Shown piece by piece: positions 10,301 to 57,805 of a stretch of 60,008 nt of DNA. Position 1 is the stretch's first letter; every line of letters starts with the position of its first letter. The notes under the pieces are model-generated. The model saw nothing but the letters and a program-made list of their open reading frames with translations. It had not been told where the DNA came from and made no database searches. The position numbers and the translations under genes are program-made. Origin of the DNA: a virus (lineage: Duplodnaviria > Caudoviricetes); IMG/VR virus record IMGVR_UViG_3300032330_000731, positions 1 to 60,008 of that record; one strand, written 5' to 3'.

Positions 10301-13300
10301 GGGCCAATAGTTGGTACTTCTTTACCGCTGCGCAGGCTAAACCTGGGCAGGCCAGTAGTCTTCACCTTGTCCTGCATGGCAGGGGTTACGTCGAAGCCGG
10401 GTTGTTGCACCCTTGCATCGTTAAGCAGTTGTTGCGTGGCTTGTTCTTTGGTTAAGTTAAATGCAATTGGCTCAAAATATGGGCCGTCAAATTCATCAAG
10501 CATGCGCTCTTCGATAGCGTATGTACCATCATCGTCTTTCACGATTCGTAAATCTTTACTGCGGGACAGACTAACTGTCCCCATCTGCCCGCCACCAACT
10601 TTTGGCAGCAGCTTCTTTACTGCCGTAGGTACGATGGTGTCGTAAAAAGCACGCATGCCTTTGGCTTCAATCTTTAAATCGTTGCCTTCGTAGTCACGGA
10701 CATTTTTCTTAAAATCGTCAGACGCGCCTGTTTTAACAACAGCCCCGGTTTCATTGATAATTTTGTCGGCCATCTCTTTACCGACAAGCTCTTCAAGAGC
10801 CTCTGGGGCGGCTCCATTTTTAGGCGTTATTTCTTGAGAAATATTGCTATCAATAGGCACCGCCCACAAAGTCCATTTTCCGTCTGAATGCTTAACAGCG
10901 CGGATTAGTTTGACCTGTTTATCAAGCGAAAATCTTTCAGTAGCTTGCTCCCCACGAACAAACGCCACCTTGTCATAGCCGCCTTCAGCGGCCATAACCA
11001 TGATGCGTTTGAGAGCGAGGTTTAGCCAGCCTTCGGTTTTGGTGACAAAGGGGGCTGCTGGAGGAAGCCCCATGCGCTTTGTTTCTTGAATCGCAAACTG
11101 TTGATCCTCGACCGGCATAGAGTCAAACTCTTCGCGGATCATTTGGTTTGCCTTTAAAACTGCCTCAATTGTTCCAGCAAAGCCTTTTTTCTTTCCTTCC
11201 TGGCCGAAATCACTTTGGAGTTCCTCTACAAACAGCACCTTATTACCATCAGCATCAGTGCGGTCGTTTACACGAATGTGGGCAAGGACGTTGGGCTGAT
11301 CCCAGTGGCTGGACTGGTAGTTGCTGTCCTCGACGGCCCTGCGGCCCCTCTGCAACTGGCGGAGCTTTTCGATTTCGTCAGCCGTCAGGTCGGCAAGCCC
11401 CGCCGCCCGGCCGTATTTGTCGAACAGCTCCTTGTTGTAGTCGTCGAGCGCGGAGTCGGGCTTCTTCTCCGGCAGCGTCAGCAATACCTCACGGTAGTTT
11501 TCACCACCGGGGAGGGTGTATTGGCCATACTTGGTGGGCTTTTCAACTTCAGCATTGAACAAATCACCATCAATATCCCTAAATCCACCCGTTGCAACAT
11601 CATCAAGAACTGTCTCCTCAACCTTTACACCACCTTCCTTTAGGTAGGTAAGAAGCTCATCCTTGGTAACTGTGCCCTTTTGTAGGTCAAGCCAGTCCTT
11701 TACACCTGACCATTCAATCTCATCAGGCTTTACACCCTTCTGCGTTAGGCCATTGATGTAGGCTTTCCAAGATGCTGCGGGAGCTTTGTTAGACCCTGCT
11801 TCAATCTTGTTTTCAAGCTCTGAGTACATGCCCAGCTTGTCACGCAGGCTGTAGCGAATGTCAGGATTTGTTTTGCTGTAGGTGCCAATGTTGCCTGTGG
11901 CTGATTTGATTTGAGTAGGCTCAAATGCGACAAATACATCCCCAAACTTTGGGTCAAATGTATTTTTAATAATTACGCCGTCGTGTTTTTGGGATTTTGC
12001 TTTTTTAATTAAATCAGCGTAAGAAATATCTCTAAATTCTTGCCCTTTCATGTCATAAACAAAAGGATTTTGCAGACTTAGGAATACCGGCATGATGTTT
12101 GCGCCGGACTTATTTTTTGTTAATAGAGTTTCAAACAAATCACTGGCTGCTTGATTTCTTGCACGCCACTCATCCGTCATCATCCAACCGTCAGTGCGGG
12201 CGCCCTTCGGCTTAAGTGAATCTCTATATTCTTGCGCATATTTAAATGCTTTTGCATCTTCTTCCGGCCATGAAGTAATAATCTCTTTTACCGAGATTTG
12301 ACCCTTTCTGGAGGCATTTCCTCCCGCGTACTCAGCAGCATTATCAGTTGAGTTTGTAAAGAAAAAGCCCTCGTATGCGCTTTTTGCTTTTGTGTTAACT
12401 CCAAGTGCATTTTTATTAAATTTAAAAATGTTTCCTGTAGTCCCGTGGTAAACCACCAGCGGCTCACCCTTATCATCTACCACCTTGCTATCACCAAACC
12501 AGTCTTTAAACGCTTCTGTTTTAGGAGCGCGCAGGCTGTAGCGGATTTTTACATTTTTATTAGCATCGTACTCAGACTTAATACCTTGATACTCTACAGG
12601 CACGTTATGGTTCAAAATTACCATCATGCCCATGTTAGGCACGGCATAGCCATCGTACCCCGCATCAACAATCAGCGACTCCATAGTATTGGCATCGCCG
12701 CGAGCTTTTGAGTAAATCTTACTTAAAGCAGCCGGTGGGATAATATTGTCAAATTTTTGAGTATAAACATAGCCGCCAACGCCAGACTCTGGCAGCGGCA
12801 TCGTTCCGTCTGTTTTCTCAATATAAAAGTAAACACGTTTCTTTACACGGTCATCCCAGTGCTGATCAAGCCGTCGAGCTTCTGCACCACGAAGGCCAGT
12901 GCCATACTTAGATGCGTCTAAGGTGTCAACTTTTGACTTGCCGTAATGAACGCCGCTAAAAGTAACAGAATCATCCTGCTTGGTGCCAAGGATTAAACCG
13001 TCCCTGGCAATTGCTTCCTTCCAAGTCCATTCAGGCATAAGACCAGTTTTTTGGTCCGCATAAATGGTGTCGGCGCCACTTGCTGTTTTGTTAAATTCAG
13101 CATTAGGACCAAAATTAACAGTTGAGTTTTGACCTCGCGTTTCGCTGGTCATTGCGCCAATAGCAGAGCCTGTAAACAGTTTTACATGAGCTTGCCATGC
13201 GTTTTCTTCGCCATCCGCCCTGAAGCCTGCACCTTCTAACCCATGCCCAAAAGCATCATGTACTGCGCGAAAAAGGTCATTAGCCAGAACTTTTTTCATC

Positions 13301-16300
13301 GGCCCATTGAGACTACCGCTAGGCCATTCAAAATCAGTTTTTGCCAATAACGGATTTGTGCTTACGTCCAAATCACTTGAGCCAAACCCAGCGGTCGTGG
13401 GGAAAACTCCCATCACTTGGTTTTTACGCAAATCACGAATTGCATTCCAAGGGGACGCAATGTAGTCTAAATTGTCTGCGCTATTAAAATCAATAAACCA
13501 GAATTTATACCCAGACTTCTTTAATGCAAGGTACTGATCGGTTGTTTGCTGGATAAGGTTTTTATAAGCCTCTTTGACAACAGGGTCTTGAGGATTATGC
13601 TGCATCGCCTCATAGGCGTCGGCCAGACGCTTTCCTCGGGCGGGGTCTGCCTTGACGTATTCCGTCTGCCGCCTTAGCTTTATTCCTTTGTCTTTTGCGT
13701 ACCGTTCAGCAACGTCAACAATTTTGGGGTCTGGCCCGTTAGCGCCTGGGACAGACGGAGCGCCTTGTAAAGGCGCAATTGTGCGGTCCTCTCCCCGTCG
13801 CTCTCCTCTGTCTCCGGGTTCTGCTGCTCGGATGGAAGACCTTGCCTTGCTTCCTTCGCGGCTTCCTTCATCGGGTCGAACGGCAGATTGTTTAGATCGT
13901 ACTTGTCCATTTTTTTCTCCTTCAACTTGTTGCAAGGTAGATTGTACGCTAGCTTGCGTTGCTTTAGGAGCCTTTAGCTGACCCTTAGCCACCTTGGTAA
14001 AGATTTGTTCTGCGATTTGATCAGACGTATAGAACCCGGTCCCGTTCAACGCAGACTTAATACCCTGAAACAGCATCTTCATGCGGGCAGTCAACGCAGC
14101 AAGCATGCCAGGAGGAGCCTTGACACTGAAGTCTCCAAAGGCATCAGCAATCGCCTCTTCAACAATCATGTCCATGTTGCCGTTGTACTTGACCATATAG
14201 GCGTCGTACCGGCTCATGGTCTTGCCATCAAGCTCTACCTGCCTGCTCTTGAGATACTGATCAATCCACTTACTATTAGCCTGACTGGTCAATGACTTCC
14301 ACTGACTGTCAGTGAAAAAGCCAAGCTCCTTTAAAGCATGGATGGTTTCATGCCTAAGAACACGCAAAGGATTGTCTGCATCAACAGCAATGCTCATTAG
14401 CTTTTCAGCATAAGAGCCTTCTTCTGCGGAGTTGATTTCTTCAATTAGCTTGACTGAAACATCCTTAAGACCCATGCGGGTAAGAATTGTTTTTAAAGCA
14501 TTAGAAAGCTGAACCTTCTTTTCAGCAATTTCTGCTTCAATCTTTTTGGTGTTCTCAGCCTTTTGTTGCTCAAGCTCTGCCCGCGTTTCTTTAGGAGCTT
14601 CTGTGCCGGGAGCTTCTGTCTTTTCGCGCAGAGATTCCTGAATAGGCGATGTTTGGAAAGCGTTAGGAAAATCTTTTACCAGCTTAGTGTTTTTAAACCT
14701 TAAAAGCGCAGCCTGATTGCCAGGGACTTGAAAAGACTGTCCTTGAAAGTTAAATGTGTGGCGGTTAGGAGCATTCGGAGCGGTAGACCCTTCAATTGCT
14801 TGATTAACCTTATCAAGAACAGTCTGCGCTTCTTCGTTTAAAGCAGTTACTGCCTTTGGAGCTTCTACGGGAGCTTCTTGCTTTGTTTTGCTGCCAGGAG
14901 TAACTTCAGTAATTGTTGTACCGAAGTGAATACCAGTGCCCTCGTTACCAATTGGGCTGGCTTCGCTATAGACCTCTACCGGGCTTAGGCCAACGCTGGG
15001 CGTGGTTTGATAAGGCACTGTAGCTAGTACCGTGCCGGCTTTTTTAGGACCGTAATCTTCTGTAAGCCTAAGCTCTAACTGCCCAGTAGGTTTATTGTCT
15101 TCAACGACAGGAACTAGCTCAGTGGCAATGTCTGCGTTTTGAAATACACCACCTACTTTGTTTACATCATCTGGGGTTAAGAATACAGTTTTAGCAGATC
15201 GCGGTTGCAGCCCAGTTGTGGTGTCAAGATGATTAGCACCGCTTCTGTTGCGCGTAGTGCTGTTATCGCTGTGATATGCGTATGTAGAACCACGTTCTGT
15301 TTTAAATGTGGAAACTACATCAGGCAAGTCTAGCAGTGGATTTACTGCAGTGGGTGCATTTCCTTCTCCACCAACAGGGACTCCAGCATCTTGCCCAGTA
15401 GGAATAGCTCCAGTTCGTTCAATTGACTCACCGTTTGCGGAGGTTCCAGCCGTGGGTTCCACAGCCACCGCAAGGTTTCCTCCACTTGGCTGTGCGACAG
15501 TTCTTGTAGCATCTTGTTCCTTTACAGATTGAATTTGATTAGCAATTGCAAGCGGTTGATTACCTGCTGCTAGTGCAGCTAACTCAGTGTTGGCATTGGC
15601 GATTTGGGCCGAAGGGTCTTGAGTGCCTTGCTGTAAATTACCAATCGCAGCCTGAGCATTAAGAATTTCTTGCTGAAGCCTGATTGTAGTTTGCTCTAGG
15701 CTTTCCCCTGCCCTTTGTCCAGGCTGAAGCGGGGCAGCAGGCGCACCTTGTCCAATAACGCCGCCAAGTACACCACCACCAATTGCACCAAGACCCGCAG
15801 CTTGACCTACACCTTGGGTCAATGAGCGGGTGGGATCAATCTGTTGAAGGTTGACATTGGATGCAAACTTGCCGCCACCTTCTTCAATCATTTCAGACGC
15901 AGCTTCGCCTAGTGCCGAACGAATGCGTCCTTCACCGGGAAGACCGGCCATCCTGCGTTCAATTGCTCGACCACCAGGAAGACGTTGGGCTAACAAAGAA
16001 ACAATGCCTGCTTCACCTGCGGTGGCTCTCGCCTTGCTAAGGGCTAAAGCCTGCCGGTCTTCTAAAGACATGCCAGGATATTGCTTTTCAGCTAAATCTA
16101 GTGCTTCTTTATAAGTGTCGGCACCAACATCTGCGCCCTGTTGTGCAACACCAGTGCCAATAGCCACCCTAGCTGCGCCGGCTCGGGCTGCAGCTTCTGC
16201 GGCTTCTTTGGTGCCATACTTGGCTAGTTGACGGGCGCCAGTTGAAAGAGCAGTGTACGCACCACCTGTCAACAACGCAGGAAGTAATTGAGGAACTTGC

Positions 16301-16743
16301 TCTGCGATAAATGAAACAAATAATGCAGGGTCTTTGATGGTAGAAGCTACTGCCGCGACACCCTCTGAAATAACACCATTCTTTGCTGCTTCTGCGATAA
16401 TTGATGCTTGCTGCGCTTCACGGGCCTTTAAACCTTCTGATTTAAGCGACTCAGCAAAGTCTTGCACCTTCTGCGGATACCGCATTGCTGCAGTGTCAAA
16501 GTTTCCAGTTGCCAGACCATAGACTTGACCCGGAAACTGGGCCATGCCAGCAAGGCCCTTTAACACAGCTACAGGAACATCTGCGGCCTTAAGGGCAGTG
16601 AGTTCAGTGCTTGGTGCAGGGGCCGGTTTAGCAGAGGACAAATGACTGCGTAACGCCTTAATCAGTAAGTTTGGATCAGCATTAGCCGGTCCTTCTACAT
16701 CATAAATTTTTCCATCAGGAGCCTGCACTTCATAGACCGGCAT
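7345..16743 (-). CDS. giant polyvalent virion/ejection protein (HExxH peptidase-like, ART-like domains, C-terminal LPD38-like)
   Basis: 3132 aa; HETIH at 14338..14352; FKDWFGDSKVVD..GEPLVVYHGT...QIKSA ART-PolyVal-like; IPFLNARIQG...IPIPFEIG LPD38-like; last gene of the virion arm. Confidence 0.85.
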   Translation of the reverse strand: MPVYEVQAPDGKIYDVEGPANADPNLLIKALRSHLSSAKPAPAPSTELTALKAADVPVAVLKGLAGMAQFPGQVYGLATGNFDTAAMRYPQKVQDFAESLKSEGLKAREAQQASIIAEAAKNGVISEGVAAVASTIKDPALFVSFIAEQVPQLLPALLTGGAYTALSTGARQLAKYGTKEAAEAAARAGAARVAIGTGVAQQGADVGADTYKEALDLAEKQYPGMSLEDRQALALSKARATAGEAGIVSLLAQRLPGGRAIERRMAGLPGEGRIRSALGEAASEMIEEGGGKFASNVNLQQIDPTRSLTQGVGQAAGLGAIGGGVLGGVIGQGAPAAPLQPGQRAGESLEQTTIRLQQEILNAQAAIGNLQQGTQDPSAQIANANTELAALAAGNQPLAIANQIQSVKEQDATRTVAQPSGGNLAVAVEPTAGTSANGESIERTGAIPTGQDAGVPVGGEGNAPTAVNPLLDLPDVVSTFKTERGSTYAYHSDNSTTRNRSGANHLDTTTGLQPRSAKTVFLTPDDVNKVGGVFQNADIATELVPVVEDNKPTGQLELRLTEDYGPKKAGTVLATVPYQTTPSVGLSPVEVYSEASPIGNEGTGIHFGTTITEVTPGSKTKQEAPVEAPKAVTALNEEAQTVLDKVNQAIEGSTAPNAPNRHTFNFQGQSFQVPGNQAALLRFKNTKLVKDFPNAFQTSPIQESLREKTEAPGTEAPKETRAELEQQKAENTKKIEAEIAEKKVQLSNALKTILTRMGLKDVSVKLIEEINSAEEGSYAEKLMSIAVDADNPLRVLRHETIHALKELGFFTDSQWKSLTSQANSKWIDQYLKSRQVELDGKTMSRYDAYMVKYNGNMDMIVEEAIADAFGDFSVKAPPGMLAALTARMKMLFQGIKSALNGTGFYTSDQIAEQIFTKVAKGQLKAPKATQASVQSTLQQVEGEKNGQVRSKQSAVRPDEGSREGSKARSSIRAAEPGDRGERRGEDRTIAPLQGAPSVPGANGPDPKIVDVAERYAKDKGIKLRRQTEYVKADPARGKRLADAYEAMQHNPQDPVVKEAYKNLIQQTTDQYLALKKSGYKFWFIDFNSADNLDYIASPWNAIRDLRKNQVMGVFPTTAGFGSSDLDVSTNPLLAKTDFEWPSGSLNGPMKKVLANDLFRAVHDAFGHGLEGAGFRADGEENAWQAHVKLFTGSAIGAMTSETRGQNSTVNFGPNAEFNKTASGADTIYADQKTGLMPEWTWKEAIARDGLILGTKQDDSVTFSGVHYGKSKVDTLDASKYGTGLRGAEARRLDQHWDDRVKKRVYFYIEKTDGTMPLPESGVGGYVYTQKFDNIIPPAALSKIYSKARGDANTMESLIVDAGYDGYAVPNMGMMVILNHNVPVEYQGIKSEYDANKNVKIRYSLRAPKTEAFKDWFGDSKVVDDKGEPLVVYHGTTGNIFKFNKNALGVNTKAKSAYEGFFFTNSTDNAAEYAGGNASRKGQISVKEIITSWPEEDAKAFKYAQEYRDSLKPKGARTDGWMMTDEWRARNQAASDLFETLLTKNKSGANIMPVFLSLQNPFVYDMKGQEFRDISYADLIKKAKSQKHDGVIIKNTFDPKFGDVFVAFEPTQIKSATGNIGTYSKTNPDIRYSLRDKLGMYSELENKIEAGSNKAPAASWKAYINGLTQKGVKPDEIEWSGVKDWLDLQKGTVTKDELLTYLKEGGVKVEETVLDDVATGGFRDIDGDLFNAEVEKPTKYGQYTLPGGENYREVLLTLPEKKPDSALDDYNKELFDKYGRAAGLADLTADEIEKLRQLQRGRRAVEDSNYQSSHWDQPNVLAHIRVNDRTDADGNKVLFVEELQSDFGQEGKKKGFAGTIEAVLKANQMIREEFDSMPVEDQQFAIQETKRMGLPPAAPFVTKTEGWLNLALKRIMVMAAEGGYDKVAFVRGEQATERFSLDKQVKLIRAVKHSDGKWTLWAVPIDSNISQEITPKNGAAPEALEELVGKEMADKIINETGAVVKTGASDDFKKNVRDYEGNDLKIEAKGMRAFYDTIVPTAVKKLLPKVGGGQMGTVSLSRSKDLRIVKDDDGTYAIEERMLDEFDGPYFEPIAFNLTKEQATQQLLNDARVQQPGFDVTPAMQDKVKTTGLPRFSLRSGKEVPTIGPKIDGTYLKRIQNIRDQIGNEYTSGKITFDEFQKRYDETNKEYVDALVFQKKLDESKPATSLEEVFPGFVSIPVGTKVLATWSDLHPSPTQATVVGSRDVRVGTKAYKFPVVDFNDGKKARTLTREDIKEVYAPRKFSLRSTFPQSTQASIDRITTARKDKGFISRMMEAIAPTAFSTYRQQYLNRYNQLGKYDKMLADQMSIPGLLADASSEAAALQSDLGAGLTASALGVHDRVGGIPVFRNGITVISNVNGTVGGPMQIFAKLTELGKGDPYIYQTYQQWAGSKRASRFNAQGIDTPYTAADLQEARNIEARYPEFVNIQKDYIKFNDGLVKYMLDTGIIDKEGAKKFSEHSDYIPFYRQLDGEATIGPNIFQSISGVKQPRKIKGGEAPLADFMETIVRNTQSIIQAGVKNTAAQRAVNVAMQLGPNFIKPLNYASSLPSDIVILEKGLKKYYRSSDPLWIESLKALNAADLPFNAFISGPANLLRTMVTKDPGFMLANMMRDSLAAHVTSGIKMVPIVDTIKNFTSAIAGKSPEFQALLNAGVLGGHEFSQNIEYSGKVLSKELRKKTGTTTTTEKILSPVTGLWSALEKGTTASDAATRIEVYKKTLAETGNEAEALFRALEVMNFNRKGNSPVIRVITAAIPFLNARIQGLDVLYRAGFGEINSANAEKVQKLFFIRGAQMMALSAMYWALTHDDDEYKKQESENRDNYWLLPSLGIKIPIPFEIGILFKVIPERILAYSFGDDTGQDFMKSMARQLSTTLAVNPIPQAALPVVEAVTNYSFFTQRPIVGQGMEGVAPGYQAGPGTTSVAADIGKALNISPMKLDHMIKGYSGTMGMYLMDVVDSVYSMNSDIEKPSKRLDQMPVLKRFLIDSEARGTVTAYYEMKNAADQVVRTDNLLERTFRFNDRADYLKENGKMLVAEEYVKTLEKTMKKFREMRIMVNSSSMSSDDKRDALRQITAAENKLTSNTQAMKKALQ
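13680..13910 (-). CDS. overprinted small protein inside the giant ORF (76 aa, MDKYDLNNLPFDPM...)
   Basis: alternative frame; SD GAAGGAG and TACAAT (-10-like, 13941..13946) directly upstream. Confidence 0.5.
   Translation of the reverse strand: MDKYDLNNLPFDPMKEAAKEARQGLPSEQQNPETEESDGERTAQLRLYKALRLSQALTGQTPKLLTLLNGTQKTKE
15342..15512 (-). CDS. overprinted small protein inside the giant ORF (56 aa, MLQELSHSQVEETLRWLWNPRLEPPQTVSQLNELELFLLGKMLESLLVEKEMHPLQ)
   Basis: hand translation in an alternative frame; SD AAGGA; amphipathic helical sequence while the main frame is low-complexity linker. Confidence 0.55.
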   Translation of the reverse strand: MLQELSHSQVEETLRWLWNPRLEPPQTVSQLNELELFLLGKMLESLLVEKEMHPLQ

Positions 16744-46857: not shown

Positions 46858-47370
46858 ATGAACAGAGAGCAATGGTTAATGCAGGCGGTGGAAGAACTGC
46901 GCCCACTATTCCAGGCTGCTGGATACTCTTTGCCCACCACTGTGCGGGTTACCTGCGGGTTCCCTAGCACTGCCCGACGCAGTGGCACGTTGGGTGAAAC
47001 GTGGTCCGCAGCAGACTCTGCGGACGGCGCCACGGAAGTGATGATCAGCCCGGTACTGGCCGGCGCTGCGGATGTGCTGGCGGTGCTGCTGACACAATTG
47101 TCAGTGGCCGCTGATGGGCGTAAGCATGCCCAGGTGCTGTCGGCTGTCGGGTCCAATCCTGATGACTATGCCGGCCTGCTGGCGGACCTGGGCGACTATC
47201 CCCATGCTGCCCTGGCACTGCCCACCAAAGCCACTCAGGTCACCCGCATGCTGAAGGCCTGCTGCCCCTCGTGCGGTTACACCGTGCGACTCACGCAGAA
47301 ATGGGTTAGCAAAGGCCTGCCCATTTGCGGCACTTGTGGTGAAGGGTTTAAATTGGAGGCTGCAGAATGA
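46858..47370 (+). CDS. SprT-like protein lacking HExxH, with C-terminal zinc ribbon
   Basis: REQWL...LRP.F...VRVTCGFP...GE.W....SADG..E..ISP; TRMLK..CP.CGYTVR...KW...GLP.C. Confidence 0.75.
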   Translation: MNREQWLMQAVEELRPLFQAAGYSLPTTVRVTCGFPSTARRSGTLGETWSAADSADGATEVMISPVLAGAADVLAVLLTQLSVAADGRKHAQVLSAVGSNPDDYAGLLADLGDYPHAALALPTKATQVTRMLKACCPSCGYTVRLTQKWVSKGLPICGTCGEGFKLEAAE

Positions 47371-48956
47371 GCCGCGCTATTGTTTCGATTCTCAAGCACC
47401 CTGCTAGCACTGTGCTGGCTGCCGCCCGCGCACTGGGCTACACCGGGGCAGACGACAAAATGACCGCCGCAGAATGGATCGTTGTTTGCGGGCATGTCCA
47501 GGCGTTTGAGGGGCTTGTCGCGTCAGCGCAGCCGGCGCCAATCCTGGCGTATAAACCCAGCACCGCGATGGCAGCACTGCCACCCGCAAAACCTGCTAAA
47601 CCTGATCCGGTGTTTGTCCCGGTTGTCAATGACTGGGGGCAGAAAGCGATGTCGGCCATTACTGCGGTGGACAATCAACTCCAGGCAGTGGTGGTGGCTG
47701 TTGCTAAGCTCACGGGTGATCTGTCGGGCATCGATTCCCGCGCTGACAGCGCAAAGCTGGCCGCCGCTACTGCCCGTTCAGAGGCTCAACGCGCAGCAAC
47801 GCAGGCGGGCGACATGGTGCAGCAGGCCCGCGCCGACATGCAAAAAACCGAGACCGAATTGCGCCGCGCTATCGCTGATGCGGTGGCCCAGTTGCAGGCC
47901 CGTCCCGCGCCTGTCATTGACCCTGCTGCAGTCGCTACGGAGGTCTCCCAGGCTGTCGCTGCTGCGTTTAAACCGTTTGCCCAGGCTGTGACTGATGCCG
48001 GCGCAGAATCGACCATCGGCGCGATGACGTCAGCTAGCATTGTTGATCGGAAAACCGCAAAACAGGTTTTCGGAGTGAATGTTAATGACGCAAAGGGCAG
48101 TCCGGTAATGGTTGATATTTGGGACCATCCCGGCGCCCCTGCGGTTGACCCGACCTTTATTTGGTCTAAACCCATTCTGCGGCACCTGCTGCTGTCGCAA
48201 TCGACGGGCGAAAATGTTTGGTTTGGTGGAGATAAGGGCACAGGTAAGTCTGAGACTGCCCGACAATTTGCTGCACGCACGGGCCGTGGATTTACACGGA
48301 TTAACTTTCACAAGTATTCCGCCCAGGAGGACTATCTCGGCGCGACTGGCCTTCAAGCCGGGTCTACCGCCTTCGAGCCGCAAGCCTTTTTGAAGGCTTA
48401 CACAAGCCCTAGCACGGTCATCCTGCTGGATGAAGTGACTAACGCTGATCCGGGCAATCTGGCGCCCCTGAATGGCCTGCTGGAGCCCGGCGCTGCGGTT
48501 TCAATCGGTGGTCACGTTTGGAGGCGTGCCCCGGGCGTGCTTGTCTTTGCTGCAGACAATACCCTAGGCAGTGGAGATCAGTCGGGCCGGTATGCTGGCA
48601 CCCGTGAGATGAATAGCAGTCTGATTGACCGTTTTCCTCGGATTGTGCGGTTTGATTTTCTGCCCATGAAATCGGAAGTGGAAGCTGTCGTCCGACATAC
48701 TGGGTGCGTGCCCGAGTTGGCAGAGCATATTCTGCAGGCAGTTAATATCGCCCGTCAAAAAGTCACTACGGGCGATATTGTGGACGCACCCTCGATCCGC
48801 TCGGTGATCGGTTTCATCCGTGCGCTGGCGATGATGCCAGTAGAGGATGCGTGGGCCTCCAGTATTGCCGCACGCCAGCCCGCTGAGTCTGCCCTGGCGC
48901 TGGAGGCTATCCGCACGGCATCAATTGATGAATCTAAAATTAAAGGCTGGATTTAA
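47367..48956 (+). CDS. MoxR/CobS-like AAA+ ATPase with N-terminal coiled coil
   Basis: GDKGTGKS Walker A, ILLDE Walker B, AADNTLG.G, LIDRF. Confidence 0.9.
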   Translation: MSRAIVSILKHPASTVLAAARALGYTGADDKMTAAEWIVVCGHVQAFEGLVASAQPAPILAYKPSTAMAALPPAKPAKPDPVFVPVVNDWGQKAMSAITAVDNQLQAVVVAVAKLTGDLSGIDSRADSAKLAAATARSEAQRAATQAGDMVQQARADMQKTETELRRAIADAVAQLQARPAPVIDPAAVATEVSQAVAAAFKPFAQAVTDAGAESTIGAMTSASIVDRKTAKQVFGVNVNDAKGSPVMVDIWDHPGAPAVDPTFIWSKPILRHLLLSQSTGENVWFGGDKGTGKSETARQFAARTGRGFTRINFHKYSAQEDYLGATGLQAGSTAFEPQAFLKAYTSPSTVILLDEVTNADPGNLAPLNGLLEPGAAVSIGGHVWRRAPGVLVFAADNTLGSGDQSGRYAGTREMNSSLIDRFPRIVRFDFLPMKSEVEAVVRHTGCVPELAEHILQAVNIARQKVTTGDIVDAPSIRSVIGFIRALAMMPVEDAWASSIAARQPAESALALEAIRTASIDESKIKGWI

Positions 48957-48957
48957 A

Positions 48958-50535
48958 ATGAATCTCCAAACCATTATTGGCCGCCCGCAGGTGCTGGGCT
49001 GGGAATTGCGCACCGCAATCGAGCAGGCTTTGCCACGCATCACCCAGGCGCTGGCAATCAATCCTGTTAGCGTTTTTTGGGCGCCCGGCGCCACTACGGC
49101 ATCCATCGGACAGTATGGTGACATCCGGCTTCCCATGGTCAGTGATGATGCCGTTATCGGTCGGTCTATGGTGACGCGGTACGTGGGTTATATCGTCCAC
49201 GAGCTTCTGCACCGCAAATATACTGACTTTAATGTAAACGCTCCAAACGAGTATTTGGCCCGCTTCCACAATGCCGTGGAGGACGTTTGGATTGAGCGTA
49301 GGGCTGTCTCTGCTGCTTTGCTGGGCAATATTGAAAACCTTTTGTCCGGTTTGGTTGACGGTATTGTTGGCGAAGCCCTGGCACAGACTATTGATTGGAC
49401 AAACCCGGCCCAGTTTCCATTCTCTTTTGCGGTGTTTGGCCGTAAATACGTTTCCCGCAAAATCCCTGTCCCGGGCAATCTGCTGTCAATTTACATTGAA
49501 GCAGACAAGCGCATTGATTCCTGTCAATCATCCGCAGACACCCTAGAAGTGGCCCGCTGGATTGTGGATCAAATTGGGAAACAAGACAGCAAGCCAAACA
49601 AGCCCAGGGAGGCCCAGGGAGGCGCGCAGGGCGACGCACAGGGGGAAGCCCAGGGCGATGCACAGGAAGGCGATCAGGAAGCCCAGGGTGACGCGAAGGA
49701 AGGCGCCCAGGAAGCCCCTGATGCGGGGCAAAGCAAGCCCCTAAACGGCAAGCACGATACGGCAGTCGAAGTGGAACCCGGCCTGCCTGCTCGCCCTGGC
49801 GATAGGGGGACGTTCTGCCGTGGAAATAGTGTTTTGCCTGATCGGATTCACACTCCCACATGGGCATCGTATAGGTTAGAAGATTCTGATGTTCCTGCAG
49901 CACTGCGGGTTGATATTCGGAAGCTGTTTGCCAACACAGCAAACGACGATTGGCAAATGCACCGCAAAACAGGGTCAATTGATACCCGTCAATTGGCGAC
50001 TGGAGGCGCCAGCATGTTTAAACGTCGTCTGGAAACCTCCGGTGTTGATTCTTCGGTTGTTATCCTGCTGGATGTTTCCGGGTCTATGTTCCCTCGCCTG
50101 ATTGGACCGGCTGCAGGTGCCTGCATGGCCCTTATGTCTGCACTTGATGGTGCTGGAGTTGAATCCGCGCTGCTTACGTTCGGCGACGGTGTTTCGACGG
50201 TCAAACCGTTTGGCAAGAATAGTCGCCAAACAAAGCAACATCTTCAACATATAAACATGGGCGGAGGAACTGATGACTATGTTGCTTTGCTGCATGCGCA
50301 TAGTCTTTTGCATACCCGCAAAACAGGCCGGAAGGTTTGTTTTGTAGTGACCGACGGAGAGGGCCGTGTTTCAGAGACTAGAGCGCAAGCAAAAATTGGC
50401 GCAAACCTGGGCATTACGACCATCGGTATCGGTATTGATAAAGATGTTTCATATATTTATAAACATGCCGTGATGGTGAGAAAAGTGTCCGACCTGGGCG
50501 CCGCGATGTTCTCAAAGATCAAAGGAGTTCTTTGA
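48958..50535 (+). CDS. CobT-like VWA-domain protein with HExxH
   Basis: HELLH...N.VED..IE; acidic linker; LLDVSGSM (MIDAS), GGT, VTDG. Confidence 0.88.
   Translation: MNLQTIIGRPQVLGWELRTAIEQALPRITQALAINPVSVFWAPGATTASIGQYGDIRLPMVSDDAVIGRSMVTRYVGYIVHELLHRKYTDFNVNAPNEYLARFHNAVEDVWIERRAVSAALLGNIENLLSGLVDGIVGEALAQTIDWTNPAQFPFSFAVFGRKYVSRKIPVPGNLLSIYIEADKRIDSCQSSADTLEVARWIVDQIGKQDSKPNKPREAQGGAQGDAQGEAQGDAQEGDQEAQGDAKEGAQEAPDAGQSKPLNGKHDTAVEVEPGLPARPGDRGTFCRGNSVLPDRIHTPTWASYRLEDSDVPAALRVDIRKLFANTANDDWQMHRKTGSIDTRQLATGGASMFKRRLETSGVDSSVVILLDVSGSMFPRLIGPAAGACMALMSALDGAGVESALLTFGDGVSTVKPFGKNSRQTKQHLQHINMGGGTDDYVALLHAHSLLHTRKTGRKVCFVVTDGEGRVSETRAQAKIGANLGITTIGIGIDKDVSYIYKHAVMVRKVSDLGAAMFSKIKGVL
49609..49716 (+). 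repeat. degenerate 12-bp tandem repeat encoding (E/D/G)AQG units
   Basis: EAQGGAQGDAQGEAQGDAQEGDQEAQGDAKEGAQEA linker. Confidence 0.7.
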
Positions 50536-52038: not shown

Positions 52039-54786
52039 TTAAAACTTATCCACTAATTCAGAATACGTTCCTGCGGTTTTGTTATATAGCAAAGCCGTCT
52101 CGCCCTGGGTGCCAACCCATCTATATCTGCACTTCCAGACTGCAATCTCTACCATCTTGTCTGCCCGGTGGACGGTAATACCGCAGTCTGTTTTGGCCCA
52201 CCATGCCATTGAATTACCAGATACAACAACCTTGCCATTCCTCCGCGTGATGTATGCGCCTGTCGATACAGTCAAGCAATACACCTTACCTGCGTAAGGT
52301 ACAACAACCATATTTCGGGCGGGTTCAACCGTTCTTTCTTTTTCATTTCTGATCATTACGATATAACGGTCGTAATGATGAGACAGCGCCCCAGCGTAGG
52401 ATGAAATGTGCGCCCACATACCAAGCTCAATACATAGCCTCTGCACATCGTCTGCAAGCTGCTTGCTGGCAGTGTGATAAGTCGTATACCCTGATTCTTG
52501 TACGCTTCCGTCCCCAAAAATCATCCCGTCAAGCAACGCCTTCTTTGCTTCAATGGAAGATGACCATATCAGATTTGGAAGCCGCTTATTGGCGCAGCCT
52601 TCACCACAGTTTTCAATAACAAATTTCTGAAGCTCAGGGTTAGATCGCTTAAACATCCTGTTAACCCACATTGGCTTTTCGTATTCGCGTGCTGATTTAC
52701 GAACAACGCAAGAGGATTTGACGCCAAGAGCGCTTACAACTTCCCTTGGCAGACTAGAGTTCTCATCTACTTGGCAAACTGACAGTGCGCCCATAGACAC
52801 ATGCCCCTCCGCTATCCAAAAACCAACGTACCACCAGAACGGGTGGAGCGCATAGCCGTGATCAAAGTTTAAATTAGTAGGCGACGAGGCTTGGACTGGA
52901 TTGCCGACCATTGGAATAGACCAGCGTGATGTGGTTACATCCTCGCTATTGCAAAAATTAAATCCTTTACTCCAAGTGCATGGACGGCCCGTCTTTTTTG
53001 ACCCCTTAGTCTTCTTCCGGCTAAATGCAGGCTTAACCAACATTCTGTGGTTTGGAGTTATCAGGAAGTCGGTTCCATTACCAGACCAGTGATGCATTGG
53101 TCCGTCATGGTCGTATTCATGGATATGCTCCGGCAGTTCATAAAAAACATCCTGGGTATCTGGATTGAAGACGGCAACCCTATCTTCGTAGGATACTTGA
53201 GAGTGGTTGACCCATCCCCTCATCGTCAAGACTTCCGTATCTGACGAATAACACCCGCTAATGCTCATTCCATCCGGCCTGGGTTGATCGACGCCTGAAC
53301 GATTGACCTTACTAGGGTGAGCAACGAAAAATGTGTGGACATCGAACGCCTTACAGAACTTTTGAATTCTGGTCAGCATGTTACTGATTGCTTCTGTTTC
53401 TGTAGTGTTGTCCCGGGGAAGCTCAAGATAGTTATAAGGGTCAATCACCAAACCCCGGATTCCCATACGCTTTACACCGACCCTTGCTCTGTCAAGGATT
53501 GAGTCTAGGGTCGATGGTTCCTCTCCGTTTGAGTCGATGAATAGGAAGTGGTCATTCACCCAGTCAAGCGCAGCAGACTTTTCTGAATGAGACATGCGGT
53601 CCTTACCCTCAAAGAACCGTTTACCCGTGTAAATCTCCATCAGCCGGGATATATGAATCTCGGGTTGATTCTCAAAGCTACAAACCGCAAACTTCCAGTC
53701 ATCTTTCCTGGCAATGTTTACCATCATTTGATCAACGAAATTACTTTTGCCCGATGACGGATAACCCGTCACGACCGTAAGCTGCCCAGGTGCAACTGTG
53801 TAAATCTGGTCAACCGAGGAATATCCAGTCGAGAATCCCTTGCCTGTTCCTTTGGCGTATAAATCATTCAGCCTGTCTTCATACGAGGCTGCGATGGTCA
53901 GGCCGGCGATTGGATACGGCGCGGCAGCATCAATAATTTCATTAACCCTGACCCTCCCCGTCCGTGATGGGTCATTCCGTGATGGGTCAAGGAAGACTTC
54001 ATTCAGGTCTTTACTAGAGAACTTTGCAATCCTGCATTTCTCTTTGCCAATTCTGCGTGCCAGTTCTTCGGCTAACGCTTGGCCGGGACCATCCTGGTCT
54101 GTTGCTAATACTACATACGGTGCTGCGTCCAGTATCTCCCGCGCATTCCATACATAAGCAAACTTTTTATCCTCAGACGGCAGTACCTTTCCATCTGCGA
54201 CTTTGATTGGCGCCCCGGAAGGCACACTAACTGCATTTAAAACTCCAGACTCAATCAATGTCAGGCAATCAATCTCACCTTCGACAATGATGATTGGCTT
54301 GCCTTTTTCTACAAGGTCAATACCAAAGAAGTCATGCGCACCCCCGGCGTCTTGTGTAAAATCCTTTTCAGGGAACGATCTATATTTGGCAGATACTAAC
54401 GCCCCGTTCCTGAAATAAGGAAAACCAATTGCATCTGCGGTTTTGTTTAGGCGACTAAAGAATTTATCCGCAGCAAATAACTGCATTTTGTCTGCGGTTT
54501 CTTTAGTTATACCCCTTGTAAGTAAATAAGCATAATGTTTTTCTTCTAACTTATTACTGATAATTTCTTTAGTCACTATAGCTGCCAATTTAAACTCCCG
54601 TTTGGTCTTTGGTTGTATAGCGCCTGTCTCTTGACAGTGGTGACAGTAGTAAAGAACTGCCCCGTCACCCTTGCGGGTGAGCGTCATGTCTTTTGCCCTG
54701 CTGTTTTTTCTGTCTCCCGAGCATGCGGGGCAGGCTACTCTCGTTGATTCATTGAAGTCAAATTGCTCAATGAACTCAGGTGTCAT
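52039..54786 (-). CDS. Twinkle/T7 gp4-like primase-helicase, intein-containing
   Basis: N-terminal CPAC...CHHC zinc finger; TOPRIM (EGEID, DQD); GYPSSGKS; VIDPY; VAHP. Confidence 0.93.
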   Translation of the reverse strand: MTPEFIEQFDFNESTRVACPACSGDRKNSRAKDMTLTRKGDGAVLYYCHHCQETGAIQPKTKREFKLAAIVTKEIISNKLEEKHYAYLLTRGITKETADKMQLFAADKFFSRLNKTADAIGFPYFRNGALVSAKYRSFPEKDFTQDAGGAHDFFGIDLVEKGKPIIIVEGEIDCLTLIESGVLNAVSVPSGAPIKVADGKVLPSEDKKFAYVWNAREILDAAPYVVLATDQDGPGQALAEELARRIGKEKCRIAKFSSKDLNEVFLDPSRNDPSRTGRVRVNEIIDAAAPYPIAGLTIAASYEDRLNDLYAKGTGKGFSTGYSSVDQIYTVAPGQLTVVTGYPSSGKSNFVDQMMVNIARKDDWKFAVCSFENQPEIHISRLMEIYTGKRFFEGKDRMSHSEKSAALDWVNDHFLFIDSNGEEPSTLDSILDRARVGVKRMGIRGLVIDPYNYLELPRDNTTETEAISNMLTRIQKFCKAFDVHTFFVAHPSKVNRSGVDQPRPDGMSISGCYSSDTEVLTMRGWVNHSQVSYEDRVAVFNPDTQDVFYELPEHIHEYDHDGPMHHWSGNGTDFLITPNHRMLVKPAFSRKKTKGSKKTGRPCTWSKGFNFCNSEDVTTSRWSIPMVGNPVQASSPTNLNFDHGYALHPFWWYVGFWIAEGHVSMGALSVCQVDENSSLPREVVSALGVKSSCVVRKSAREYEKPMWVNRMFKRSNPELQKFVIENCGEGCANKRLPNLIWSSSIEAKKALLDGMIFGDGSVQESGYTTYHTASKQLADDVQRLCIELGMWAHISSYAGALSHHYDRYIVMIRNEKERTVEPARNMVVVPYAGKVYCLTVSTGAYITRRNGKVVVSGNSMAWWAKTDCGITVHRADKMVEIAVWKCRYRWVGTQGETALLYNKTAGTYSELVDKF
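52213..53253 (-). mobile_element. intein with LAGLIDADG endonuclease (347 aa)
   Basis: SISG|CYSSDTEVLT...GFWIAEG...LLDGMIFGDG...VYCLTV...RRNGKVVVSGN|SMAWW. Confidence 0.93.
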
Positions 54787-55022
54787 TTCATAGACCCATC
54801 TGATTTTCTAGGGAATGATCGGTTTTTTGACGGCTTCTCCAGCCGTACCCCGTCTTTATTAAGCCCTCCTTTGGATAGGGCTTTTACGTGCGCAACATCT
54901 TTACCAGTTCGATCAACTCCTTTGGCATCGAGCTTTCGTCTAGCCCGCTGTCGCTCCATGCGGTCTTCATGCTCTCCTCTGGCGAGTTGAGTTGCGTATT
55001 CGGTTTTGTAATCTCTGGGCAT
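54783..55022 (-). CDS. small HNH-like protein
   Basis: RDYK.EY...R.RARR......GKDVAHVKALSKGG.N.......S.NRS. Confidence 0.75.
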   Translation of the reverse strand: MPRDYKTEYATQLARGEHEDRMERQRARRKLDAKGVDRTGKDVAHVKALSKGGLNKDGVRLEKPSKNRSFPRKSDGSMK

Positions 55023-55134
55023 AGCAATTCCTCAAATGGAATCTCAAATGTTACCTTGTCTGCTGGGTCTTTCATAACAAATCCTGTTAATGATGTACAG
55101 AAACCCCTGTAGATTCTTATTATTGATATTGACC

Positions 55135-55353
55135 ACCTAAAGGCCCCCCTTCCCCATTGAAGGGGATCGGGGGAAGGTGCCACCGCCTTGCGGCATCTGC
55201 ATGCTAGTCTCCTAGCCCCTGGGCTTGCAGATAAGTCCAGCCCCACGGATTGTAGGGTAGTTGCCCTTGCCTTTCGGCTACCGTGTACCCTGTTCTTCCA
55301 CGCTGCCGGGTTCGCACTTGCTATCGGATGGAGTCCGAGGGGTGTCCCCCTGG
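55135..55353 (-). ncRNA. structured RNA / leader upstream of the primase operon (unknown family)
   Basis: three GNRA-capped hairpins and a possible pseudoknot on the minus strand; upstream TTGCAC-N16-TACAGT. Confidence 0.55.
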
Positions 55354-55453
55354 GGTCGCACTGTAGCAGGCTGCGCGCAAAGTGCAAGCCCCTTTGTGTG
55401 TTGTATGTTGGCAACAAAGCCCATGATGTGAGCCATATGTTTAAACACAGGTC

Positions 55454-55482
55454 TTGATACATTTAATTGTCTTTGCTACACT
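55454..55482 (+). promoter_or_regulatory. sigma70 promoter (extended -10)
   Basis: TTGATA-N17-TACACT with TGn before the -10. Confidence 0.7.
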
Positions 55483-55488
55483 AGCCGT

Positions 55489-55577
55489 GCCGGCTACTCC
55501 CCCGGCTCCGGGTCGCAGGCTCTGTCTCCCCGGGTCTTAGCCCTCACCTTGCTTACGCTTGGTGGGGGCCTTTTTTT
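55489..55577 (+). ncRNA. candidate ~90-nt sRNA with C-rich anti-SD loops
   Basis: promoter, two hairpins with CUCCC loops, then a terminator hairpin plus T7. Confidence 0.65.
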
Positions 55578-55973
55578 GGGCGCCACATCTTCCATAGGCT
55601 CGATCAGGATGTCCGTCCTGGGCGACACAGGATCAAGATGCCAGTAGATGTGCTTCTCCTTTACCTGCCTGTCGTTGATGTAAACAACGTCTTGAAGTAG
55701 ATCAAGAATCAAAGACTCATCTAGGTCAGGGCGTCTACTCGCATAGTAGATGTGCAAGGTCACCCGTACATCACAACTCAACAACGGGCTACATCGCTTG
55801 CACTGTCGTTTAAATGACTCAGAGTAGGTCAACGCCTTCTCTGACTTGATCAGTCTTGACATCCCGCCGTACCGCACCACACGACGACTGTTCGCCTTGC
55901 TGGCCGGCTCATCAAAAATTGTTTGCGATAGTGCTTGCGCGCCATCATTGCGTGTGCTATCGTCTAGGCTCAT
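55494..55973 (-). CDS. rusA: RusA-like Holliday junction resolvase
   Basis: PASKANSRR; RRPDLD...ILD.LQ...Y.NDRQV; exact start uncertain. Confidence 0.85.
   Translation of the reverse strand: MSLDDSTRNDGAQALSQTIFDEPASKANSRRVVRYGGMSRLIKSEKALTYSESFKRQCKRCSPLLSCDVRVTLHIYYASRRPDLDESLILDLLQDVVYINDRQVKEKHIYWHLDPVSPRTDILIEPMEDVAPKKRPPPSVSKVRAKTRGDRACDPEPGE
55540..55577 (+). terminator. rho-independent terminator
   Basis: GCCCTCACC-N12-GGTGGGGGC-C-TTTTTTT. Confidence 0.75.
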
Positions 55974-55986
55974 CGAAGGAGTTCTT

Positions 55987-56841
55987 ATGAAGGTGACCAA
56001 CAAGCACAACGCACCAGCTACGCTGATGACGTTGGCAACCACTGAATACTACAGCAAGGGTGCTGCGCAGTATTCTGTAACAGAGATCATGGGGCCACCC
56101 AAGATCAGGAGGCTAAGGGAGCAGTACAACGAGCAAATCACTACCGACGTCTCAGACATGCTGTGGCAGCTTCTAGGCTCTGCCCTACATGTAGTGATGG
56201 AACGCGGACAGACCGAGAACCATATCACCGAAGAACGCTTGTTCACTGTTGTAAATGGTGCAACCATCAGCGGGCAGATCGACCTCCAGGAAGTCACCCC
56301 TCAAGGGATCATCATCACCGACTACAAGTTGACAAGTGGCTGGGCAGTGATGCAGAACAAAGCTGAGTGGGAAGAGCAGCTTAACATTTACAAATGGCTG
56401 GTCGAGGTAGCTAAGAAAGAGAAAGTCACTGCGCTTTACATCTGCGCTTTGATCCGGGACTTTGACAAGCACAGCAACAAAGAAGGTTATCCAGAAGCCC
56501 CGATCCACATGCTTAGTATCCCCATGTGGACCGCTGGAAAGGCTCAGGCTCACGTAGAACAACGCATTGCCCTCCACAGTGCAGCCAAGGCAAAACATGA
56601 GCTTGGAGAGCCTTTAGACGACTGCACAGACCAAGAGCGATGGATGTCTGAACCTGTCTTTGCTGTTAAGCGAGAAGGTAGGAAGACGGCCATCAAGTTG
56701 TTTACATCTAAAGAAGCAGCAGAGGAGTTGGCAATCAAAGAAAAAGGTTATGTTGAAACGCGCCTTGCAGAGCCTAAGCGATGCACAGGTAATTACTGCG
56801 GTGTCGCAGAGTGGTGTACTCAATATCAGGAGTCAAAGTGA
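55987..56841 (+). CDS. PD-(D/E)xK (Cas4/RecB-like) exonuclease
   Basis: G.ALH...E; ISGQID; ITDYK; QLNIY; C-terminal RC..NYC.V..WC.QY. Confidence 0.85.
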   Translation: MKVTNKHNAPATLMTLATTEYYSKGAAQYSVTEIMGPPKIRRLREQYNEQITTDVSDMLWQLLGSALHVVMERGQTENHITEERLFTVVNGATISGQIDLQEVTPQGIIITDYKLTSGWAVMQNKAEWEEQLNIYKWLVEVAKKEKVTALYICALIRDFDKHSNKEGYPEAPIHMLSIPMWTAGKAQAHVEQRIALHSAAKAKHELGEPLDDCTDQERWMSEPVFAVKREGRKTAIKLFTSKEAAEELAIKEKGYVETRLAEPKRCTGNYCGVAEWCTQYQESK

Positions 56842-57107
56842 AAAAACTACTTGCAGATTTTAGTATGGCTTCCGGTTTGTTAATAAAGCATATCGGTGGT
56901 TTTCACCCATCATACAACCCTCTTCGCAGAGAAGTTGATGGGTTTACATATGACGAAGAGCTTCAAGAACCCGGCGTTATTAGCGCTGTAGCTACAACTT
57001 ACACAAGTTGCGATTTGCGAGAATTTGCTGCAGCTTTTATTGAAGTTGCAGACTGGCTGGATAAGCGCGCAGAACTGGCGCAGCTTGAACTGGAGAAGTC
57101 GAAGTGA
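56838..57107 (+). CDS. hypothetical protein
   Basis: GTG start coupled to neighbours on both sides. Confidence 0.6.
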   Translation: MKKLLADFSMASGLLIKHIGGFHPSYNPLRREVDGFTYDEELQEPGVISAVATTYTSCDLREFAAAFIEVADWLDKRAELAQLELEKSK

Positions 57108-57805
57108 ATGCCAATGATCTTTTGAAGCTCAATGTAAATGATCACGTTGAGAAGAAGAATGGCCTAAGCTATCTTTCATGGGCCTGGGCCTGGGCCGAGG
57201 CTTTGAAGGCTGACCCTACAGCAACGTTCCACGTTGAGTCCTATGAAGTTGACGGGCAAACGCAGTGCTACATGGATGTAAACGGAACTGCGATGGTGTG
57301 GGTGCGGGTCACCATGTTTGGTAAACCCATGACTTGTATGCTTCCGGTGATGAACTCAAAGAATGAACCCATCCCACTGATAGGACGGACGTTCAAAGAC
57401 AAGTTTGGTAAGGATAAGACAGAGAGGGTTGATGCCTTCAATGTCAACTCCGCAATCATGCGTTGCATGACCAAGGCTTTGGCCCTACATGGTCTTGGCC
57501 TTTACATCTATGCCGGAGAAGACCTGCCGGAAGAAGATGACAAGAAGGAAGACAAGAAGGAAGACAAAAAAGAAGAGCGAAAAGTTGACGAAAAAGCAAC
57601 AAAAGCCCCTAAGAGCGATGCTGATATTGAGTTGTTTGCTAAGAGCATGATCGAGTACACTCTTTTTTCAAAGACAGCAAGCGGACTGAATTCATTCTGG
57701 ATTGCCAACAAAGCGCAGCTAGATGAACTGAAGGTGTCGCATCCCGGGTTGTATGCAACGGTTCTTGATTCTTTTAAGGCTGCTAAGGCCGCAATTGGAG
57801 AGTAA
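57104..57805 (+). CDS. sak: Sak-like (DUF1071, Rad52-type) single-strand annealing protein
   Basis: EKKNGLSYLSWAWAW; LPVM; N.AIMRC.TKALA.HGLGLYIYAGEDLP. Confidence 0.9.
   Translation: MNANDLLKLNVNDHVEKKNGLSYLSWAWAWAEALKADPTATFHVESYEVDGQTQCYMDVNGTAMVWVRVTMFGKPMTCMLPVMNSKNEPIPLIGRTFKDKFGKDKTERVDAFNVNSAIMRCMTKALALHGLGLYIYAGEDLPEEDDKKEDKKEDKKEERKVDEKATKAPKSDADIELFAKSMIEYTLFSKTASGLNSFWIANKAQLDELKVSHPGLYATVLDSFKAAKAAIGE

Follow-up and report, generated by a model that had tools for sequence, protein, structure and literature searches.

A probable small RNA gene beside rusA in an uncultured tailed phage and its fast-evolving counterparts in related phages

Does the 3' end of the resolvase gene rusA in an uncultured freshwater tailed phage cover a gene for a small regulatory RNA, and on what would such an RNA act? 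The question is raised by positions 55489-55577 (+) of the window, by which we mean the whole stretch of DNA analysed here. The window is an entire virus record of 60,008 bp. It has direct terminal repeats, is rated complete and carries tailed-phage genes for terminase, portal, tail and virion proteins. The sRNA locus lies in the replication and recombination module, which contains the following genes:

52039-54786 (-), primase-helicase with a probable intein, Toprim and DnaB_C domains
54783-55022 (-), orf79, 79 residues, followed by a 570-nt gap before rusA
55494..55973 (-), rusA, Holliday junction resolvase, convergent with the sRNA; Pfam RusA at residues 23-124 of 159
55987-56841 (+), PD-(D/E)XK exonuclease, which opens the exonuclease/Sak recombination operon
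57104-57805 (+), Sak-type annealing protein

The primase-helicase has 915 residues and contains a LAGLIDADG-type insert, probably an intein, with Pfam LAGLIDADG_3 at residues 748-796. Elsewhere, the window holds an ORF of 3132 residues whose role is not known (7345-16743, -) and two adjacent genes (47367-50535, +) with weak PHROG matches to porphyrin biosynthesis and to the cobaltochelatase CobT subunit.

Homology of RusA to all of its relatives stops at residues 121-131 of 159. The stop codon lies at 55494; over its last ~32 codons (55494-55589) the frame reads on across the sRNA gene. Since the frame is open down to 55494, rusA overlaps the sRNA on the opposite strand.

The predicted transcription unit is composed of these elements:

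55454..55482 (+), sigma-70-type promoter: TTGATA 55454-55459, 17-nt spacer, TG 55474-55475, TACACT 55477-55482
55489..55577 (+), predicted 89-nt sRNA, from a +1 at 7 nt after the -10 through the end of the U-tract
55489..55506 (+), 5' hairpin: GCCGG 55489-55493, loop CUACUCCC 55494-55501 (8 nt), CCGGC 55502-55506
55507..55534 (+), second stem-loop: outer UCCGGG/CCCGGG around inner GCAG/CUGU; contains UGUCUCCCC 55523-55531
55540..55577 (+), intrinsic terminator: stem GCCCUCACC...GGUGGGGGC 55540-55569, then C, then U7 55571-55577

An earlier note on this DNA had read the promoter as TTGATA-17-TACACT, and our scan found it at 55454..55482 with the TG in addition. The hairpin GCCGG/CCGGC, which the note had placed at the predicted +1, has the sequence given there and encloses CUACUCCC; the terminator hairpin with its U7 is likewise located where it had been put. 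Since the minus strand has no U-run behind the hairpin, the terminator works in one direction only. Within 2 kb there are four promoter-like sites, with 1.6 expected, and three terminator-like sites, with 1.7 expected. As consensus matches of this kind are frequent by chance, the case for an sRNA rests on conservation in relatives. Among four DNA sequencing runs, contigs of X2, X4 and X8 span all or part of the sRNA with a few differences; in X8 there are insertions behind 55522, 55527 and 55570.

The 89-nt RNA folds with a minimum free energy of -42.7 kcal/mol, compared with -31.4 +/- 2.9 for shuffled sequences (z -3.93; 0 of 200 as good). Three stem-loops make up the favoured fold, in which UCCGGG (55507-55512) is paired with CCCGGG (55529-55534). 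The hairpin AGGCUC-UGUCUCCCC-GGGUCU of the earlier note is not favoured; UCCGGG and CCCGGG pair around a small inner hairpin instead. This outer helix leaves UGUCUCCCC mostly paired, its mean unpaired probability in the partition function being 0.32 for the window and 0.16 for L059, the nearest relative. A consensus fold of these two sequences has UGUCUCCCC single-stranded, but at a worse energy. In loop 1, CUACUCCC, the unpaired probability is 1.00 at all 8 bases in both the window and L059. Hence, of two anti-Shine-Dalgarno loops that had been proposed, the first stands as predicted accessible, whereas the second does not, its motif being mostly paired. An accessible and conserved sequence complementary to the Shine-Dalgarno region is thus predicted in loop 1 and not in the second motif, and loop 1 is, by these folds, the sole convincing seed in the window's RNA.

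L059 encodes an exonuclease protein 90% identical to that of the window. Promoter, RNA body and terminator are all kept there, and loop 1 differs by one base, which bears out the conservation in relatives that the earlier note had named as a check. The sRNA (L059:352-444) is 86% identical, rusA DNA 83% and the 100 nt further upstream 50%. The -10 TGCTACACT and the TG are identical to those of the window; the spacer has lost 2 nt, but the -35 has moved by 2 nt to a new TTGCGG, which restores the 17-nt spacing. Hairpin 1 has an identical stem and a loop that differs at its first base alone, C to U. In stem-loop 2 the outer helix reads UCUGGG/CCCAGG, a C-G pair having become U-A with both sides changed, and this one compensatory change is so far the support for that helix. 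The terminator shows a U.G pair turned into C-G and a tract of U8 in place of U7. The extra U shifts the frame of rusA, so that the part of RusA overlapping the sRNA is not conserved: its tail has 18 codons in L059 (stop at L059:403) and 32 in the window. We therefore rejected conservation of the sRNA body as a by-product of coding for the RusA tail, since frame and length of the tail differ in L059; in another relative, L009, the ORF overlaps the U-tract alone.

Relatives were gathered by means of the exonuclease protein (26 IMG/VR loci and 69 metagenome loci). They keep the gene order primase, orf79, gap, rusA, exonuclease, with a gap of ~390-2270 nt. A DNA search with the gap did not find the sRNA in IMG/VR loci; it found another conserved block instead, the structured RNA of 55120-55345 treated below. 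Inspection of the DNA at the 3' end of rusA nevertheless showed, in most relatives, a + strand unit made up of a promoter, a short RNA rich in C and U, and a terminator that has a U-run; these units mostly differ in sequence from the window's sRNA. For a tally we required a promoter score of at least 8, an RNA of 45-130 nt and a terminator at the rusA end. Loci with rusA numbered 88 including the window; 12 were excluded as too short, and 62 distinct loci were judged. Clear units were present in 40 of the 62, weaker or displaced units in 13 (of which six are clearly homologous and have a poor -35) and none in nine. Some promoters are strong, e.g. TTGACA-17-TGnGACAAT. Four loci (L308, L323, L331, L332) yielded extra variants of the same sRNA design, and a contig binned with a beta-proteobacterial metagenome-assembled genome (MAG), L129, carries a unit of the second subtype described below. 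In distant relatives binned with other phyla, coding sequence takes the place of the sRNA.

The RNA body is usually kept at least as well as the coding DNA beside it, which is not true of the DNA just upstream. Its identity equals or exceeds that of rusA DNA in 11 of 13 locus pairs and exceeds that of the 100 nt upstream in 12 of 13; between L009 and L013, for instance, the sRNA body is 96% identical, with 78% for rusA and 54% upstream. One exception is L006/L007, where the L007 unit was mis-delimited. All 16 members that were folded are more stable than their shuffled versions (z -3.3 to -7.3), and all have in common a 5' hairpin, an exposed C/U-rich stretch and a terminator. Short members begin with the hairpin at the predicted +1, followed by a single-stranded C/U-rich stretch and the terminator; the stretches read:

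L006, ACUCUCCCCUCUUA
L008, UCUUUCUCCUUUUU
L088, UGUCUCCUCCUU

Read by eye, many members of this first subtype share AGUUGUC ahead of the C/U stretch, a TAnAnT-type -10 that precedes the hairpin by 6-7 nt and, 25-60 nt upstream, the octamer GTTTAAAC discussed below. An alignment of 15 short members with MAFFT did not bring the shared AGUUGUC into register. In the second subtype, which includes L009, L015 and L026, GCCUCC stands close to the 5' end and is followed by a hairpin whose loop is often rich in CUCCUCC. This hairpin persists while its stems vary among L015, L017, L019 and L114:

L015, stem GACCGGUU/AACCGGUC
L017, stem GACCAGAA/UUCUGGUC
L019, stem ACCGUUC/GAACGGU

In the terminator stem both sides have changed in 5 of 7 pairs. 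RNAalifold recovered the terminator alone from 12 members of the second subgroup. What the comparison shows is anatomy, conservation, structural covariation in relatives and shared motifs. The C/U tetramers CUCC, CCUC, UCCC and UCCU occur in 31 of 36 RNA bodies and are absent from five, with a mean of 3.36 per body; 5000 segments drawn at random from the same loci average 0.56, and 33% of them contain at least one such tetramer. The 36 sequences are mutually related, so that these motif counts are not independent events.

Beyond the clade the searches returned little. GenBank phages gave no DNA match to 55100-55620, and their exonuclease relatives are at most 37% identical, the best one having another gene order and no convergent rusA. 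In IMG/VR, the 14-mer of loop 1 gave chance matches only, the four longest in high-GC sequence; the terminator 20-mer gave no match, and a motif-plus-linker pattern gave mostly chance matches plus four terminator-linked look-alikes. The latter consist of UCUCCCC..UCUUAGCCC with a terminator hairpin and U-run on unrelated IMG/VR contigs outside the rusA clade (L031, L049/L057, L055), and may represent more sRNAs built on this plan.

The palindromic octamer GTTTAAAC is a separate feature of these genomes. It has five copies in the window against 1.7 expected, one of them at 55439-55446, without extended context. In relatives L002-L026 it is enriched, mostly to 3-9 copies per locus of 5.7-6.9 kb (one copy in L019; none in L021 and L027). 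It often stands 25-60 nt upstream of the sRNA -10, and also at a fixed position within rusA.

With the unit kept in L059 and analogues in most related phages, comparison supports the self-contained phage sRNA gene that the earlier note had proposed. Consensus and conservation, computational evidence throughout, point to an independent transcription unit, one that has a promoter and an intrinsic terminator of its own. We conclude that 55489-55577 (+) is very probably a genuine sRNA gene of the phage. The sRNA family to which it belongs evolves fast and is kept at the 3' end of rusA by a clade of uncultured phages with a link to Betaproteobacteria. The family is apparently undescribed: it is not in Rfam 15, and no description of it was found in the literature searched. 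The link to Betaproteobacteria is drawn from L129 and from the presence of RF02932, a family named Betaproteobacteria-1 RNA, in the relatives.

On the minus strand, RF02932 lies in the orf79-rusA gap of L002, L005, L009, L010, L012, L013, L017, L021, L026, L082 and L089 (70-93 bits). In the window the same slot, between the sRNA and orf79, holds another structured RNA of ~230 nt at 55120-55345, most likely on the minus strand, with strong covariation. The minus-strand consensus fold of ten sequences has 47 pairs, 14 of them with both sides changed, and a consensus energy of -38.1 kcal/mol, as compared to -24.8 for the plus strand; many U.G/C-G alternations occur, which would be A.C on the + strand. 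The structured RNA has no Rfam match at E <= 10, and the RF02932 consensus is unrelated to it. Its core pattern on the + strand, CTTCCACGC, 12-32 nt, GGATGGAGTCCG, is present in 65 IMG/VR stretches, in the rusA clade and in other gene contexts; among the 63 loci that are new, tblastn detected rusA in 23 and an exonuclease homologue in 37. An alignment of 41 sequences was too divergent for a consensus fold outside the core. The element has the look of a phage RNA that is widespread but unclassified. In L006 and L007 it shares the gap with a tRNA, and the orf79-rusA gap behaves like an island whose non-coding RNA genes are interchangeable.

On what would the sRNA act? Known families give a first indication. 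No Rfam family matches the window at gathering thresholds. The best match in the phage genome is to RF02278 at 55523-55577, with 21.7 bits against a gathering score of 50 (E 0.0013); the next match has 10.8 bits. Sub-threshold matches to RF02278 recur at the same locus in L088 (34.2 bits, E 0.0027), L082, L074, L018 and L083. In all, 6 of 22 phage loci scanned in E-value mode have one; L059 has none. The covariance-model check suggested by the earlier note was thus answered in two parts, with no family at threshold but a recurrent weak match. None of the RNAs that it cited, cuckoo, AbcR and suhB-type, is the closest known family; this is RF02278, itself below threshold. Other weak matches were to sX13, suhB/mmgR, ar14, LhrC, anti-hemB and NsiR1. 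Weak matches to several C/U-rich families mean that the signal is partly generic, arising from a C/U-rich stretch and a terminator.

In true members of RF02278, UGUCUCCUCC is followed by a hairpin whose loop is CUCCUCC; an AUU linker and the terminator come next, and the whole is often preceded by an upstream hairpin. The sequence GUUGUCUCCUCC of L088 is identical (12/12) in 6 of 15 true members, and in the fold of L088 it is unpaired over its full length. In the true member L176, the loop of the upstream hairpin contains CUACUCCC, as does loop 1 of the window. The MAG (G001) that holds L129, the best relative among genome contigs, has an RF02278 match of 44.2 bits. Within its order, the likely host group, RF02278 is found at E <= 0.001 in 42 of 61 genomes, 18 of them above the cut-off, and in none of 14 controls.

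Published work describes what this host family does. RF02278, named Betaproteobacteria toxic small RNA and reportedly first described by Kimelman et al. in 2012, comprises the 'double-hairpin RNAs' ncS03, ncS05, ncS27 and ncS62 of Burkholderia cenocepacia, and S17S of Bordetella pertussis is a close homologue. Their unpaired C/U-rich regions are reported to be complementary to ribosome binding sites, and overexpression of NcS27 attenuates growth (PMC5688073; PMC4603805; PMC10987360). S17S is described as Hfq-dependent, with one reporter directly repressed; in its absence 92 genes are de-repressed, 70 of them with matching sites at or near ribosome binding sites (PMC11722255). According to the papers on NcS27 and S17S, the regulon includes transporters, carbon-source catabolism and a sigma-54 activator. 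The word 'phage' was not found in PMC5688073.

On balance, we favour the reading that the phage sRNA acts in trans on ribosome binding sites. Host RNA polymerase would be expected to transcribe it from its own sigma-70 promoter. The 5' hairpin would display CUACUCCC in its loop, and UGUCUCCCC would be held in the second, largely closed stem-loop. The C/U-rich seed would then bind certain mRNAs, most likely of the host, by pairing with their purine-rich Shine-Dalgarno region, and would block initiation of translation, as reported for NcS27 and S17S of RF02278. Hairpins followed by a terminator hairpin with a U-tail are the usual shape of Hfq-type sRNAs. We infer transcription, action in trans, targets and any Hfq dependence in the present case. 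Within the phage, a duplex scan of both strands with the seeds only gave no site at a start codon beyond the self-complement, and no extended complementarity to either seed was found at phage mRNA start sites. The best non-self seed duplexes fall inside phage genes; two are perfect matches of 10 nt, which is within chance. Duplexes of the full-length RNA were uninformative for a target search within the phage.

A narrower version of action in trans may be entertained tentatively, with more doubt than belief: the phage family might consist of captured or convergent copies of a host core sRNA (RF02278/S17S/NcS27) by which the phages, through the shared seed, seize its regulon early in infection. 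If true, this would be regulon hijacking by sRNA mimicry in abundant, uncultured Betaproteobacteria phages of fresh water.

The best of the alternatives, which we nevertheless consider unlikely, is that the RNA works in cis in the manner of the OOP RNA of phage lambda. It would pair with the rusA 3' end and with read-through RNA toward orf79 and the primase-helicase and trigger cleavage or transcriptional interference, its C/U-rich content being incidental. The arrangement invites this reading: 84 of the 89 sRNA nt lie inside the rusA ORF of the other strand, the RNA is fully complementary to the rusA transcript, most relatives keep the convergent arrangement, and rusA transcripts should read through the sRNA terminator, there being no minus-strand U-run. 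Across relatives, however, overlap with the rusA ORF ranges from 0 to 100%, being full in the window, L002 and L005, ~10 nt in L009 and none in L015, where the stop codon is 46 nt away; a conserved functional overlap of the OOP type is not found. Moreover, three relatives have the module on the strand of rusA itself, directly after the stop codon:

L020:~2530-2595 (-) and L101 (-), AGUUGUCAC and terminator (also given as CGCAGUUGUCACC)
L021:~2530-2590 (-), CUCCCCUCCUUUU and terminator

These modules may represent sRNA derived from the rusA 3' UTR; CAGUUGUCAC is common to L020, L101 and + strand members. With the module on the rusA strand in three relatives, antisense action on rusA is probably secondary. 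Same-strand modules and variable overlap together indicate that what is conserved is a C/U-rich stretch with a terminator beside rusA and not the antisense relation. Nor does pairing in cis need conserved exposed C/U-rich stretches or a seed shared with host sRNAs. The earlier note's remark that the sRNA is antisense to the extended rusA 3' end is accordingly right as to the overlap, which is real; the read-on is not conserved, and antisense action on rusA is unlikely to be the conserved function. In the window's phage, pairing with the rusA transcript is unavoidable, yet probably a side effect.

It is improbable that a real sRNA serves here to titrate a protein or RNA, as a sponge for Hfq or another RNA-binding protein or as a decoy for G-rich host RNAs. 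Strong promoters in relatives, a terminator hairpin with U-tail and the lack of a specific mRNA target in the phage would fit such a role. Nothing specific speaks in its favour, however, and the feature that the family shares is Shine-Dalgarno-complementary sequence, the mode of action reported for related host sRNAs (PMC5688073; PMC11722255).

We think it very improbable that there is no gene at all and that a one-way terminator or insulator merely ends the replication module behind a chance promoter-like site. The excess of such sites over expectation in the 2 kb, given above, leaves room for chance. Against this stand the restoration of promoter spacing after the indel in L059, the position of the -10 at 6-7 nt before the 5' hairpin in every family member inspected by eye and a body more conserved than its flanks; in addition, the window has no upstream + strand gene that the terminator could serve. 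Hardly credible, finally, is a 5' leader or attenuator of the + strand exonuclease/Sak operon (start 55987) whose terminator, antisense to rusA, sets read-through: the promoter is the sole sigma-70-like one found on the + strand between 55124 and the exonuclease start, and the start codons of rusA and exonuclease are just 13 nt apart, but the terminator is strong with no alternative antiterminator fold evident, ~400 nt of antisense rusA would need to be transcribed, and in L020, L101 and L021 the module is directed away from the exonuclease gene.

The preferred reading, an sRNA acting in trans on ribosome binding sites, gives the family a wider meaning. An entire clade of uncultured phages has retained, in one fixed position, an sRNA gene that evolves quickly. 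The one thing that stays constant in it is complementarity to ribosome binding sites, and in some members the seed is exactly that of a core host sRNA family whose overexpression slows growth. A function is known for few phage sRNAs, the majority of them from enterobacterial prophages. If the RNA works as proposed, it would be a compact device for host takeover or timing, and the family a natural experiment in the evolution of sRNA seeds. The RNAs are small (50-90 nt), easily synthesised and testable with standard reporters.

Among known systems, OOP RNA of lambda is a short RNA with its own promoter and terminator, convergent with and overlapping the 3' end of a protein gene in the early/replication region, and it acts via perfect antisense overlap. 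The window's sRNA resembles it in having its own promoter and terminator and in the convergent overlap with the 3' end of a gene. It differs in belonging to a family with variable ORF overlap and, in three relatives, a module on the same strand as rusA. OOP is not known to have a conserved seed complementary to the Shine-Dalgarno sequence.

Cuckoo/ar14, sX13, suhB/mmgR, LhrC and Neisseria NmsR likewise direct C/U- or C-rich loops or linkers against purine-rich start regions. Unlike the window's sRNA, they are chromosomal and belong to other bacterial groups, and none comes near its gathering score (sX13 13.3 bits in the window; in relatives ar14 22.1, suhB 19.6-22.6 and LhrC 30.1 bits, all sub-threshold). 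Convergence on a common target sequence is the simplest account of their likeness.

RF02278 comes closest. Like the window's sRNA, its members are short C/U-rich RNAs with an exposed stretch complementary to ribosome binding sites and an intrinsic terminator with U-tail, and both share UGUCUCC, followed by a linker of the UCUUA type and a terminator that starts with GCCC. In the window, however, UGUCUCC is internal and mostly paired and not a free 5' end: the single-stranded 5' seed UGUCUCCUCC is absent, and UGUCUCCCC, to which the 5' end of the RF02278 model aligns, is found internally. The CCAYC...GGUGG hairpin with its CUCCUCC loop is lacking as well, the 19-position hairpin of the model being reduced to 1 position, although linker and terminator are present; the exposed element is instead the loop of the 5' hairpin, CUACUCCC. 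Moreover, the window's sRNA is encoded by a phage beside rusA, whereas RF02278 RNAs lie on bacterial chromosomes. The window's RNA thus lacks the defining features of RF02278, but it is of the same design and shares part of the seed.
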